Assembly: GCF_988243305.1 (NCBI RefSeq)
Contig: NZ_OZ547136.1
Direction: 5' to 3' (one strand)
DNA length: 64,000 bases
Part shown: in pieces, positions 33,901 through 39,900 of the stretch
Position numbering within the stretch: the stretch's first letter is position 1
Layout of the letters: every line of letters begins with the position of its first letter
Position numbers: made by a program

Positions 33901-36900
33901 GCGGCTTAACAACCGCCGAACTCGCCAGGCTGCTCGATCTCGATGAAGAAATTATCATCCAGTGGGAGAGCGGAGAGTATGAACCAACTATCAGTATGCT
34001 TATCCCACTGGCAAATATTCTTGGCTGCGATCCGATGTGGCTGTTAACTGGTGAGGTTACTCCTCCGGAGCAACCAAAAAGTGAGGAGCAGCAACACCAT
34101 GACGCATCTCAACAAGTTTGCCCCTTATCTCGCGAAGCTCTTCTGCGGAAGAACCAATACCAATAGTGACATAATCGCCGCTTCGCCCTTCAAGGTACAT
34201 GCGAACATTTTTATCAATCATTGCGGAAACAGTCTCAATATGAAAACACTTCTGAGACTCGCTATATAGCAGAACATATAAGTCAGCTGAGGAAGCCATG
34301 AAAAAGTTCGAAAACATAACTGTTCTCCATGTTGATGACTTTGATTATACAAACCCGGAACTTCTCCCGGAGGTTGTAAAGGCAATAGATGTTGCCGATA
34401 TAGTGATTAGAGAAAAGAGAATTGTCAAAAACAGGCTCGCATGCACTTCAGGAGCAATGACAGAAACAACCTCACAGCAAGATAATTACGAAGGCATTTG
34501 TCTGGAGCCTGATTCATTTGCGGTAAATGTTTATCATTTATTGCATGCAACACAGGTATTACATATGTCCAGTAATCACGAAACGAAAACACTCGGCAGC
34601 GAAATTCTGAGTTTTGCATGTGAGTATACAAAAGCTGCTGCCGAAAAAGAATTAGCGCAATAACAACAAATATGCCCTGAACGTTTATTGCGGTTTTATC
34701 GCCGGGGATTGTTACAACCTTAATCCACAGGAGGCTTTATTGTGACTTTTATAAAGAATATGGCATCACACAAGACCGCCTGCCTTATTGCACAATACGG
34801 TGAAAATTACATGCATATTGCCTGCTTATTTCTGCGTAAAGCATACGGGAGATAATAATGCATCAGAAAACAGCAGAACACGAACAAACCAGAATATTGC
34901 TGACCATCAAAAACGGGAAAGTAATATTCATTCGCCATGTTCATGACGATGAACTTGTAGGAACTCTTTCAACATTCCTGTTTATTGCAGAAAGGGCAGG
35001 ATATGACGTTATTGCACCAGCAGATGAAGATGAAGATGAGGAATAAATATCATGCAATACGATGAATTCCAGGCTGAAGCAACAGCCAATGGTATACGAA
35101 CTGGCAGTATGACGATTGATTATCACGACGCCATACGTCGTCTGGATGCCGGAGAATTCGATACTCCTAATGTGCGAGGTTTACGTATCCTTCAGTGTCT
35201 GGCGCAAGCCGACGAAGCAGGATTACTGGGTAAACTTCCGGTTGAGATGAAGGTTGCTCAGTGGCGATGGTTGTATGTGACGACATTCATCAACGAAGAA
35301 GAAGACAAGAACGGCACAATTGATATCCTGAATGAACACGGAACAACTGAACACGCCGTGGTATATAACGGGATGTATGGGTTTATGACGATATATCCCG
35401 GCCCCATTCGATTTGCCTTACAACAGTATATTGAATGGAATTTAATTCAAAAATACGGCGAAGCTGAAGGAATGGGAAGAGCGCTGTTTCTTTATCAGAA
35501 AATGCTCACTACTTCCCCTGATAAAGGTTTCATTCTTTCAGATATGGGTCGAGAAGGGCTTGAAATCCTTCTGGATGAAATTATTAACGAAATGAATACT
35601 CATGGCATGCAATCCGAAACAGATATTAAGTAAAAGGGACCACATGACCGTTATCGAGTATATCCAGGAAAATCCAGATTGCAGTAGAGAAGATATATCC
35701 CTCGCACTTGGAAGAAGCGCAACTTCTATCAGTAATGAATTATCACGGTTATTGTGGAATGGGTTAATAGTACGAACTGGAGAAAAAAACAAAATGATTC
35801 TGTACTGCGTAAACAATCTGCCGTTTGGATACAGCAATCCCCTAAGTGTTATGTTCAACCAGTTACTTAAACAGGTAAGAAATGGCAACTGACTCACAAC
35901 TAACCATAGAAACGGCCCTGAATGTCGGCCTGGCGCTCCTTGGTTATTTTTACATCGTGTTCTGCAGCGGACGGTGGCTGTCGCTGTTGTTCCTGAAAAA
36001 ATGGAATAAACGCCGTAAGCAGGATGAACGCCAGAAGGCAATGAATGCGTTTTCCGAAGCCTTCGGAATTGACGGCATGGAACCAGGGGATCCAGCTCGC
36101 GCAATCAGCAGAGGGGGTGTAGTAATCCTTGTATATCGGAGTGAAGAGAAAAATGACGATCACAAAACAACGAGTAGAAAAAATCATATATCGCCATGAA
36201 ATGGGACTGAACAGCGATGTCACTGCCGAAGAGGTTTATGACCTGGCTGTACTGGCACTGAATTTATCAAATATCGCAAACCTGAAGCGATACGAGCTTG
36301 ATATGGATGGTTGCGACTCGTGCGGTCAGGATTGTGGCGCAGATATGACTGAAGATCCTGATGGTGATTATGTCCTGTTTGATGACGTGGTTAAGTTGTT
36401 TGAATTTGATACAACCACTCAAAAGTTAGAAATCCCGGCAAAGGAGGCTGCCAGTGAGCAAGATTGACTATCAGGCACTGCGCGAGGCGGCGGAACAGGC
36501 AACGCAAGATGAATGGGTAGCATATATTTGCCGGGTCATAACGGCATTTATCCTGCGCGCACGTCTGAGGGTAGGCATTGCGGATACTTTATTGACTGGC
36601 CTGGCGTCTGTCAGGGGCGGGAGAGCATCAACATGAGCATCAGAACCTACGCAGTGAATTGCAATGACGCATGGCTAAACACCGAAGGTGATGACATCTC
36701 CGGCTCATACGTTAAGTACAAAGACCATCAGGAAGTGGTTGCCGCTCTTGAGGCCAAGTGCGCGGCGCTGGCAGCGGAGAATGCGGGAATAAAGTCTGCA
36801 ATTCCAGAATCACGGGATATTGAGGATGACAATGACAATATGGATGACGTATCTCTCGCGGAAGACTTCGGGTTCAATCATGCAATAGAACGGATGAGGA

Positions 36901-39900
36901 GACAGATACCTGAAACGCCAACCACTGATGCTTTCCTGGCTGAAGTCCGGGCGCAGGGGGTGGACGCTGCTATAGAAGCTGCAAAAAATCTGGTGGCCCA
37001 AGAATATGAGTATAAGGATTTCAAAGCGGCGCAGAGTGATTGCTGTATGTACCCTGGTTCAGACCTGGTAGGGAAGGTTGAAATGACTGAGTGGTTAGTT
37101 GACTTTGCTGCCCAGCTTCGCAAAGGAGGCAACCAGTGAGCGAAATTAATTACCAGGCACTGCGTGAGGTGGCGGAACGTGCAATTCCAGCAATGGAACG
37201 CCTGTTAATGTTGCCAGCTGATGATGACTTGTTAAGTGAACAGGAACTTAAAGATTACGGTGTGGATATTGATGCGCTCAACGCCTTCAAATTTCTGACC
37301 GGACCAGAAACCGTGCTGGCACTGCTGGATGAACGGGAAAGAAACCTGCAATACATCAAAAGCCGCGATCAGGAGAACGAGGATATTGCGCTAACGGTAG
37401 GGAAGCTGCGCGTTGAGCTTGAAGCAGAAAAACAGCGGGCAAAAGTTCTATTTATGGAAAATGCTCGGCTTAAGTCAGGCATAGCCGGTCTGATACACCT
37501 CGGTATTCGATATGCAGATGTTGAGGTCATGAAAATTGCTGGAGATGCCCAGCTTTCTACCCCATGCACTGACAGCATCATAAACAGCATTGCAACAGGC
37601 ATTCGCATCAAAGGAGAGTGATATGGCGTTAACACACCACGAACTCTGTCAGATTGCGTACAAGTTCCTTAAGCGCAACGGGTTCAAGGTTTGCTTTCAT
37701 GACCGCTTTGTTGCTGTAACCAGTACCGGAGAACAGCCAGATGCTATGGGATTCAGAAATTCAGCATCATGCCTGATAGAGGCGAAGTGTTCTCGTGCTG
37801 ACTTGTTGGCAGATAGAAAAAAGCGTTTCCGTAAAAATCCCTCACTTGGCATGGGCGACTGGCGATTCTTTATTAGTGAGCCGGAAATTATTTCAGTTGA
37901 GGATTTACCTCCCGGCTGGGGATTACTTCACGTTGTTAACGGAAGAGTACGGAAAGTACATGGATGGCCCAGGGGTAATTGCTGTTGGGGTAATCCTGAC
38001 GATAAGCCATTTACTGGGAATAAGCAGGTTGAATGCGATTACATGTTATCTGCATTAAGGCGCATGGAGTTGAGAGGGCACCTTAATGAAATATATGACG
38101 GTGTGATTGTTAATAAGAAAGAAGGAAACGCGGCATGATCACTATTACCAAAGGGCGACTGCTGACAATCAAGCAGTGGCGCGAAACATACGGACCGGGT
38201 AGCAACGTTGTACTGCCAGCAGAAGAAGCGGAAGAACTGGCACGAATTGCACTGGTATCGCTGGAAGCAGAGCCGGTTGTGTTCTGGTTTGAAAAATATC
38301 AAGAAGGGGCTACGGCATGACGACTTTTACCAGAGAGCAGTTAATAGCTCACGCAGAGGAGACTATTGAAGCACAGAGACTGTGCATACCGGGTACAATC
38401 GACCATGACATCATCCGCACATATAAGATGGATATTGCTGTTCTGGAAATCGCACTGGTATCGCTGGCAGCAGAGCCAGCCGGTAAATTGCATGAATACA
38501 AACCAGTGGGATATCAGCGTCTGGTCGATGAGTTAACCATGCTGGTAAAGCAGTTAACCTGGCAACTGAGGAAAGCGAAGCCAGACTGCAAATTACCGGA
38601 TAAGGCGATGAGTTATCTGGAGCGGAACGGACTGATAAGCGTGGAGGATATTTTACGATGACCTGGCCTGAAGCATTAACAACGGTAGGAATTGCGATGG
38701 CGGTGACGCTGATGGTGTATTCGATTTGCCGCTGGGGATAACCACATGTTCGCTTTGATTCAACGCGGTCAGATATACACGGACAGAGCCGGATACCCCG
38801 TGGTGATTACTCGCATCACTGAGCACTCAGTGTTCTTTCGACGGATGGACGGACGATCCGGGCGGGTACGCATTGGTGAGTTAAACTGCCTGTTCGAACA
38901 TATTGACCACCAGGAGTACCGCAAAATTCTCGCGGACACTGAGCAGGAAAAGCACCTGAAAAAATTACGAGCCATAAAAAGGAAGTAAAGAATGAATAAA
39001 GCATTTGAACGATGGGTCCACCAGCGTTACGGCAATCGCTATGACCTGACGCGAGATGTTGACGGCTTCTACTGTCGTGAAGTTGTGAAGCGAATGTTTG
39101 AAGTGTGGTGCCACTGCCGTGGGCTGAGTGTTGTGTGAGGTAATACATGGGCAATGTGATTCAACTGGCTCCCAATGAATGGGTTTGTGAAAGCGTTCTT
39201 ATCGCAATTACCGGGCTCAAACCAGGCACAATTCTTCGGGCCCGGAAAGAATGCTGGATGGTTGGAAGAGAGTATATTCACGTATCACCAGACGGTAATC
39301 CAAAGCCTTCCAGTGAATGTATGTATAACAGAAAAGCAATAGATGCCTGGGTCGCCTCAATGAAAAACAAACAACCCAGGTGATTTAATATCATGAAATA
39401 TGTAAGCTCGTATCGCTCTTGGGCGTCTGGAGGTATCGATGGATAAAGTCAAATATCCAACAGGCGTCGAAAACCACGGCGGCACATTACGCATCTGGTT
39501 TAATTTTAACGGTAAACGTGTCAGGGAAAATCTTGGTGTCCCTGACACTGCCAAGAACAGGAAGATCGCCGGGGAACTGCGGACATCAGTATGTTTTGCC
39601 ATCCGCACAGGAAGCTTTGATTATGCTGCACAGTTCCCTGACTCCCCCAACCTTCAGGCTTTTGGGGTAAGTAAAAAAGAAATTACGGTGAAGGAACTTG
39701 AAGAAAAGTGGCTGGATCTGAAACGAATGGAAATCTCTGCAAATGCATTCAATCGCTATGAATCCGTTGCAAGAACGATGGTTCCGAAAATTGGAGGCAG
39801 TAGACTGGTGTCATCGGTAACCAAAGAGGAATTGCTGTATATCAGGAAAGATTTGCTTACCGGGTATCAGAATTCAACGAAAAACAAAGCAGCAGCAAAA

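Follow-up and report, generated by a model that had tools for sequence, protein, structure and literature searches.

An Ea22-family mosaic junction in a lambdoid prophage adjoining yecE, where a single-base deletion probably leaves the downstream gene expressible

Ea22-family reading frames upstream of xis and int

Ea22 is a three-part protein with variable ends that is encoded in the early-left 'exo-xis region' and that is reported to promote lysogeny (PMC7093339, PMC10834534), an effect recorded for lambda and some Shiga toxin (Stx) phages only (PMC7093339). Here we describe an Ea22-like locus with an interrupted frame (positions 36454-37621) in a stretch of 64,000 nucleotides from contig NZ_OZ547136.1 of RefSeq assembly GCF_988243305.1, which is referred to below as the window. 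The locus is situated inside the early-left operon of a lambdoid prophage adjoining yecE. In the RefSeq annotation of an identical prophage, the gene order is repressor, several small genes, DUF4752, two Ea22-family genes, xis, int and yecE. Within the window, xis is found at 39147 and int at 39439, and the Ea22-family pair lies just upstream of them in the PL-transcribed region, which is the location of Ea22 in lambda. The locus contains the following open reading frames (ORFs), for which lengths are given in amino acids (aa) or codons:

36129-36467, plus strand: upstream gene, the 3' end of which contains the Shine-Dalgarno sequence of GTG 36454.
36454-36636, plus strand: remnant ORF with a GTG start, 60 codons, beginning with MSKIDYQALREAAEQATQDEW.
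36633-37139, plus strand: gene A with an ATG start, encoding a 168-aa protein in which a short N-terminal segment precedes a long helix and a helical bundle at the C-terminus; the last residues are LRKGGNQ.
37136-37621, plus strand: gene B with a GTG start, encoding a 161-aa protein beginning with MSEINYQALREVAERA and ending with GIRIKGE; its start overlaps the upstream stop as GTGA.

An earlier note on this DNA had placed the three ORFs from 36454 onward at these positions and in these frames, and our ORF reading of the window agrees with it. The note had further proposed that the N-termini encoded at 36454 and 37136 are paralogous, which is borne out by the Pfam profile PF13935 (Ead_Ea22), as both of them match this profile from its position 1. 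They are the only two N-terminal motifs of this type in the window, and the likeness at the DNA level extends upstream of both GTG codons (CAAAGGAGGC..CCAGTGAGC). The second reading frame is open from 36513 to 37139 (208 aa), and its internal ATG at 36633 gives the 168-aa protein. At a curated gathering threshold of 27 bits, PF13935 recognizes the 60-aa ORF (38.8 bits, E-value 1.7e-9), the 208-aa frame (51.3 bits) and the 168-aa protein (43.3 bits). The label 'paralog array' therefore suits the locus, which comprises two Ead_Ea22 genes and the 5' remnant of a third. The profile itself is cut between frames, the 60-aa ORF covering positions 1-25 in frame 0 and the 208-aa ORF covering positions 24-138 in frame −1. 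A continuous single-frame match is present in gene B (108.8 bits, profile positions 1-139); it is absent for gene A of the window and is regained there by adding one T (102.2 bits). None of the five local proteins searched against NCBIfam gave a match.

Gene B is a lambda-type Ea22 paralogue. Its product is 54% identical to lambda Ea22 over the N-terminus and the coiled coil, and the last 7 residues and 24 bases of the two genes are the same. Two different starts are annotated for gene B in RefSeq, GTG 37136 (161 aa, WP_001289973.1) and ATG 37193 (142 aa, WP_052930532.1). We favour GTG 37136 because PF13935 begins at residue 2 of the 161-aa form. The exact 168-aa protein encoded by gene A is present on at least 1000 public contigs.

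The 228-aa form is a chimera

The frame break had been suspected at a homopolymer near 36600-36640. All alleles are identical there, and alignment to near-identical E. coli loci places the break upstream, in the T run at 36527-36529 (plus strand), which has three bases in the window (T3) and four in fused alleles (T4). Insertion of one T gives a 228-aa ORF that is identical to the product of strain BEC1-S17-ESBL-09 annotated as WP_033877702.1, and the frame in the window is interrupted by a 1-base deletion relative to 228-aa alleles with 97-100% identity. The identical locus in strain SF-088 carries the RefSeq/PGAP label 'ead/Ea22-like family protein, frameshifted'.

A break in a T run raises the question of a sequencing or assembly error in the source genome, the more so as several T3 carriers are presumably long-read assemblies, but the likelihood of such an error is practically negligible. 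A run of three to four T is short for errors of this kind. An exact T3 91-mer was found in 7 of the 234 complete-genome records that hold the segment, and these 7 genomes come from different laboratories. Moreover, the 60-aa T3 peptide is encoded on 741 public contigs (NCBI, ENA and Logan assemblies), and the allele occurs in 4 of 80 IMG/VR loci. Because 7 complete genomes and 741 public contigs carry the allele, the T3 break is not an assembly error. It is also highly improbable that a programmed −1 frameshift or transcriptional slippage makes both a 60-aa and a 228-aa protein from one gene. It is true that a −1 shift would lead from the start into the downstream frame and that the break falls in a run of T, but there is no in-frame X XXY YYZ heptamer at GCA TAT ATT TGC CGG (36520-36535), three T are far too few for polymerase slippage, and no stimulatory structure was detected (fold z-score of about 0). 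Furthermore, the breaks are fixed DNA alleles, located at four places in different genomes.

The 228-aa allele cannot be regarded simply as the intact ancestor of the locus, a view that was dropped on finding that many proteins start at its Met61. The form is a chimera in which codons 1-50 of a canonical Ea22-like gene precede the leader and the full coding sequence of a stand-alone gene. It stems from an older recombination at a 7-base microhomology, GCCTGGC, by which the first 150 bases of the canonical gene were joined to the stand-alone one. The features concerned are:

36441-36447, plus strand: Shine-Dalgarno sequence AAGGAGG, six bases before GTG 36454; the same block recurs upstream of gene B.
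36454-36605, plus strand: 5' fragment of canonical Ea22-like origin, corresponding to codons 1-50 when four T are present and to PF13935 positions 1-48.
36599-36605, plus strand: crossover GCCTGGC, located by four-way alignment; also the 5' arm of a small hairpin (36600-36615).
36606-36632, plus strand: leader of the stand-alone gene, natively the C-terminal tail (..CLASVRGGRA.., then stop) of a preceding gene; homologues in loci L015, L017 and L023.
36619-36625, plus strand: Shine-Dalgarno sequence GGGAGAG, the native signal of ATG 36633, with GGAG at 36620-36623 and a spacing of nine bases.
36633-36636, plus strand: ATGA, in which ATG 36633-36635 overlaps the TGA of the remnant (36634-36636); the same overlap is found in L015, L017 and L023.
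37123-37129, plus strand: Shine-Dalgarno sequence AAGGAGG of gene B, encoded in the RKGG tail of the 168-aa gene.

At the protein level, a search against 1.84 billion representatives returned many matches whose start coincides exactly with residue 61 of the 228-aa protein. Among the best 150 representative clusters, TYAVNCNDAW is preceded by no more than 4-5 residues in 30, and these first residues vary (MKIN, MSEVK, MREVK, MSKVK, MSIK and others); only 5 are fused. The joint ..DWP(G/S)VCQGRESI is common to all 5 fused clusters, two of which lack the N-M residues before SIRTYAV. Canonical members diverge after ..DWPG and continue with FDxQKNAENNARYIAAFNP... The 168-aa gene belongs to the stand-alone 'TYAVNCNDAW' branch, having its own start independent of the Ea22 N-terminal helix.

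The DNA alignments place the switch in parentage inside GCCTGGC. The DNA of a canonical gene (L016/P0184) matches the window as far as GACTGGCCTGGC, except for the T run and three substitutions. Near the crossover the window is identical to L016 over the four-way-aligned segment bar one A/G substitution, the T-run indel lying further upstream. From GCCTGGC onward the window follows the leaders of the closer stand-alone relatives L015 and L017, which are homologous to window positions 36599-36632. ATG 36633 occupies the position of the stand-alone start, and the same leader precedes this start in L015, L017, L023 and L024. In three further contexts (L012-L014), the DNA upstream of stand-alone genes is unrelated. 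When the full native leader was used as a megablast query against complete E. coli genomes, all matches except a single one had their first base precisely at the junction. This shows the unfused parent to be rare in E. coli, and the unfused parent sequences used here were drawn from assemblies other than complete E. coli genomes. The exception is E. coli MDK9L1 (L018; NZ_CP081333.1, approximately 920,893-920,966), where the gene behind the native leader and its ATG is a different one without relation to the family, and a partial ren lies upstream of the leader. The leader thus behaves as a portable gene-boundary module.

The origin of the leader accounts for the make-up of the remnant ORF, in which the native N-terminal helix of Ea22 (codons 1-24) is followed by filler read out of frame (codons 25-48) and then, over the last 12 or so codons (..GLASVRGGRAST, then stop), by the leader in its native frame. 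In L023, the leader is the C-terminal tail (..NPLTNLFNQCLASVRGGRAEV, then stop) of a 106-aa protein, and the stop of this protein overlaps the ATG of the MSIRTYAV.. gene. L015 and L017 have a 29-codon ORF with the same ending, and 9 of their 16 mutual differences are at third codon positions. The end of the remnant corresponds to the tails in L023, L015 and L017 in the identical frame. That the 29-codon ORF encodes a dedicated leader peptide was considered and rejected, since L023 shows it to be the tail of a larger gene. A 96-aa ORF at 35602-35892 of the window is homologous (E-value 1e-7) to the 106-aa protein of L023, the C-terminal tail of which (..NPL..LFNQ.L..VR.G) natively stands before the stand-alone gene; a boundary of tail plus next start like that of L023 recurs within the operon of the window itself.

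These alignments also bear on the order of events. If the two-ORF form were ancestral and the 228-aa form a later fusion by a 1-base insertion, one would expect what is seen in part, namely that split forms are abundant and that the stand-alone gene natively stands behind a short ORF ending in ATGA. We nevertheless regard this order as very unlikely. Residues 26-50 of the fused frame are homologous to canonical members (PF13935 positions 24-48), and therefore the 5' fragment arrived in the T4/G3 state. In addition, a crossover at GCCTGGC yields the fused frame directly, and a single step separates each of the four split alleles described below from the fused form, whereas any two split alleles are two steps apart.

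To view the fused protein in three dimensions, an AlphaFold2 model of the 228-aa form was built on a 150-row alignment. It comprises a helix (residues 6-15), a long helix (83-116) and a helical bundle (132-223). Confidence is good over residues 83-228 and poor over residues 1-80, with a predicted local distance difference test (pLDDT) score below 50 at residues 42-70, which span the joint. The folded core thus lies wholly within the 168-aa ORF. A Foldseek search of the model against PDB and BFVD gave nothing below an E-value of 0.1, and PDB sequence searches with the proteins of genes A and B gave no relevant match, which limits the functional lead to family membership.

Recurrent net −1 indels and the state of the locus

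With four T at 36527, the remnant is in frame through the leader and continues into the 228-aa fusion. The change from T4 to T3 shifts the remnant into the native frame of the leader (..LASVRGGRA.., then stop), and for this reason the 60-codon ORF stops at the native TGA within ATGA. The resulting stop-start overlap, together with the Shine-Dalgarno sequence inside the upstream ORF, is the layout of a translationally coupled pair at 36633, and ATGA or GTGA overlaps also chain the operon neighbours at 37136, 38135 and 38317. We consider it likely, with a probability of roughly 0.75, that the locus is a mosaic junction of two Ea22-family genes followed by a third, and that the T3 split leaves the native 168-aa gene expressible. 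Ribosomes would start at GTG 36454, translate the remnant as far as ATGA and, after termination there, re-initiate. The remnant would then be translated as a bridge only, its 60-aa product probably being functionless, and the 168-aa protein would be made unfused by re-initiation and from its own ribosome-binding site. By family membership, the 168-aa protein and the product of gene B may act like Ea22 and bias the lysis-lysogeny decision towards lysogeny. Judged from its sequence, the locus is probably a derived but working two-gene arrangement, with expression of the downstream gene predicted.

RNA folding at the junction was no better than that of shuffled sequences in the window and two native leaders (z-scores of −0.01 to +1.0). 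A structured coupling element was considered and dropped, because the only shared structure is a 6-bp hairpin, CCUGGC/GUCAGG, at the joint (36600-36615), which is kept in the leaders of L015 and L017 despite a variable loop.

The T3 deletion is one of four independent indels that break the remnant in different genomes, all of which are net −1 and located at short repeats. The three other sites, at which the window is wild type, and a G run further downstream are:

36533-36535, plus strand: GGG, changed from G3 to G2 in other genomes.
36555-36560, plus strand: GCGCGC, site of an additional GC (+GC).
36579-36580, plus strand: TG, site of an additional TG (+TG).
36956-36960, plus strand: run of five G (G5) inside the 168-aa gene, intact in the window.

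The fused allele is the hub of this set, each split allele being one indel away from it and the split alleles two steps from one another. Exact probes detected T3 in 7, G2 in 20 and +TG in 33 of approximately 234 complete-genome records. On contigs, the +TG peptide was found at least 999 times and the G2 peptides 304 and 149 times, while fused 228-aa variants (97-100% identity) were found on well over 2000 contigs. A simple frameshift, as the earlier note had put forward, was to be doubted if orthologous loci shared the two-ORF structure, and this same layout was indeed found in thousands of assemblies, by way of three further indels. In a pattern scan of IMG/VR, which listed 80 loci and reported 83 matching stretches, the frameshifts were distributed as follows:

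Chimeras with the internal ATG: 26 frameshifted (16 +TG, 6 G2, 4 T3), 20 fused.
Chimeras without the internal ATG: 1 frameshifted, 15 not.
Canonical genes with the same 5' 150 bases: 0 frameshifted, 13 not.

Frameshifts were accordingly present in 26 of 46 loci that keep the ATG versus 1 of the 29 others (Fisher p-value of about 1e-6, the loci being phylogenetically non-independent). Net +1 alleles such as T5 or G4 were absent from the 80 IMG/VR loci. In the split IMG/VR loci, the end of the downstream ORF was readable in 24 cases, and every one of these ORFs closes with the family tail (Q/E)(L/I)R(K/E)G..Q. The +TG allele is combined with five downstream proteins and four N-terminal haplotypes, G2 with three of each and T3 with one of each; T3 is therefore the youngest allele. 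Many fused alleles have lost the ATG through in-frame deletions of 6 or 12 bases between direct repeats of GAGCATCA, as is the case in 16 of 63 chimeric IMG/VR loci; in the window, these repeats are 12 bases apart and flank the internal ATG (36623-36644). Three IMG/VR loci (L089, L063 and L092) differ in other ways: one has the end of a mobile element, resembling an IS10 end, inserted in the remnant after CTGCGCGC, and two have another recombinant joint after GGCATTGTGTGTCACG that gives a 49-aa ORF.

The recurrence of net −1 events is suggestive of selection, although it does not demonstrate it. In this tentative reading, to which we give somewhat less than an even chance, the frame break is a compensatory 'un-fusing', selection having repeatedly favoured net −1 events that restore the ATGA-coupled, unfused protein. 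The un-fusing set would consist of T3, G2 and +TG, which keep the internal ATG, whereas in the +GC allele (L019) the ATG is deleted and nothing is rescued.

The main alternative is a plain pseudogene: loss of a base from the homopolymer would have inactivated a working 228-aa gene, leaving two inert ORFs behind as the prophage decays. We regard this as unlikely, though less so than the other alternatives. It is in line with the pseudogene label that PGAP gives to the identical locus, with the second downstream frameshift in two T3 carriers, with other frameshifted or partial genes in the prophage, and with T3 being a single recent haplotype. It does not explain why the downstream ORF is a member of a stand-alone family with a native Shine-Dalgarno sequence, ATG and ATGA overlap, why the older split alleles (+TG and G2) keep the downstream gene intact across 8 C-terminal versions, or why frameshifts in the same 150 bases are nearly absent where there is no internal start (1 of 29). 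The fused N-terminal part is, moreover, modelled as disordered. Of the two possibilities that the earlier note had left open, a frameshifted Ea22-like gene is correct in so far as there is a 1-base deletion relative to the common 228-aa allele, but the downstream ORF is more than a continuation. A genuine two-gene arrangement is correct in so far as that ORF matches a stand-alone family with a native start, but the locus is frameshifted relative to the fused allele. In effect the locus holds two genes, since the downstream ORF is native and has a start of its own.

Several observations weigh against a preserved, selected arrangement. In the T3 carriers AR_0372 and Nord58, the 168-aa gene is itself frameshifted by a second indel, from G5 to G4 at 36956-36960, and this gene therefore appears to be dispensable in this prophage lineage without obvious cost. 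The fused alleles are at least as common as the split ones, which implies that fusion is tolerated, and T3 is young, with its single haplotype and single downstream protein. The association with the internal ATG rests on 3-4 mutational events in phylogenetically non-independent loci, and short repeats may, through slippage, be prone to just these types of indel. Two events, the net −1 +GC insertion (L019) and a deletion in the leader (L058), are found in alleles that lack the ATG and in which there is nothing to rescue. Translational coupling, for its part, is deduced from the ATGA, the Shine-Dalgarno sequence and the native contexts. Finally, the prophage carries further frameshifted or partial genes that qualify as pseudogenes.

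As regards such genes, positions 37623-38138 of the window are open throughout, and the 171-aa product strongly matches two PHROG families (phrog_9263 and phrog_631). The identical RefSeq record splits the same segment into a 179-base 'frameshifted' pseudogene and a partial gene, a call that may stem from a short reference protein. Elsewhere in the prophage, three tRNA genes at 22193-22438 (Arg-tct, Arg-tcg and one with a CAT anticodon, Ile according to RefSeq) adjoin a frameshifted DNA methyltransferase gene, with lysis genes downstream. We presume that this position of the tRNA genes resembles the arrangement in Stx phages; no stx gene is annotated in this yecE-integrated prophage.

Translation signals also coincide with the tails of the Ea22-family proteins. 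The tails ..LRKGGNQ and ..IRIKGE, each followed by a stop, are encoded by AAAGGAGG or AAAGGAGAG, which is at the same time the Shine-Dalgarno sequence of the next overlapping gene. The sites considered were 37119-37139, 37610-37625 and 36440-36456 in the window and 1048-1071 in lambda (L010). Lambda ea22 ends with the same 24 bases despite there being no coupled gene downstream. That the tail doubles as the Shine-Dalgarno sequence of the next gene may account for the '+GE motif of unknown significance' (PMC7093339).

Significance and comparison with known systems

The Ea22 family, the frameshift call and mosaic or split Ea22 genes have all been recorded before. New in the present analysis are the precise position of the break, the recognition that the 'intact' form is of chimeric origin, and the recurrent net −1 un-fusing; a literature search on Ea22 frameshifts returned nothing for this locus. 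For annotation, the label 'frameshifted pseudogene' hides a 168-aa gene with its own start that is probably functional, as judged from its sequence. RefSeq is inconsistent on the same layout, giving a pseudogene in some records and two genes in others, besides the two starts of gene B. The locus also provides an example of how phage mosaic joints arise at microhomologies, of how translation signals inside gene ends constrain protein tails, and of how a fusion is later undone by slippage. If true, the un-fusing would be a natural case in phage mosaics of positive selection splitting a gene by means of frameshifts. With respect to the mechanism of Ea22 itself, the locus opens no new question.

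Compared with lambda, both genes of the window score above the PF13935 threshold and occupy the PL-side position just upstream of xis and int. They share the build of a short N-terminus, a long helix or coiled coil and a C-terminal domain, as seen for gene A in the AlphaFold2 model and for gene B in its alignment to the lambda coiled coil. In contrast to lambda, where there is one gene, the window has two genes and a remnant. The C-terminal domains in the window are unrelated to the mixed alpha-beta dimer of lambda: neither protein is homologous to the solved lambda domain, with which gene B shares only the last 7 residues, and the C-terminal domain of gene A is an all-helical bundle with no match in PDB sequence or fold searches.

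In Stx phages, the region is highly mosaic with partial duplications, and ea22 of 933W is split into ea22 and L0065 (PMC8614690). Like the Ea22 proteins of Phi24B and 933W, the source gene of the remnant encodes the longer N-terminal domain of the Stx type, in which a strand-rich region comes after a helix (PMC7093339). The split in 933W, compared here by description, is attributed to an insertion that separates the C-terminal domain, whereas the gene in the window was cut in the N-terminal domain, after fusion to another member of the family, by a 1-base deletion.

The arrangement at 36633 resembles coupled overlapping genes in its ATGA (36633-36636), in the Shine-Dalgarno sequence nine bases before it and in the use of the same device by its operon neighbours. 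It differs in that the upstream partner is a non-homologous remnant rather than a functional gene, and here the coupling is predicted.

Lambdoid 'novel joints' arise by non-homologous or microhomology recombination at or near gene boundaries and are later filtered by selection. The joint in the window is similar in that a 7-base microhomology lies beside a gene boundary, in that both parental forms persist elsewhere, and in that conserved boundary sequences double as translation signals. Unlike such joints, it lies inside a gene, and the in-frame fusion survives as a common polymorphism beside its un-fused derivatives.

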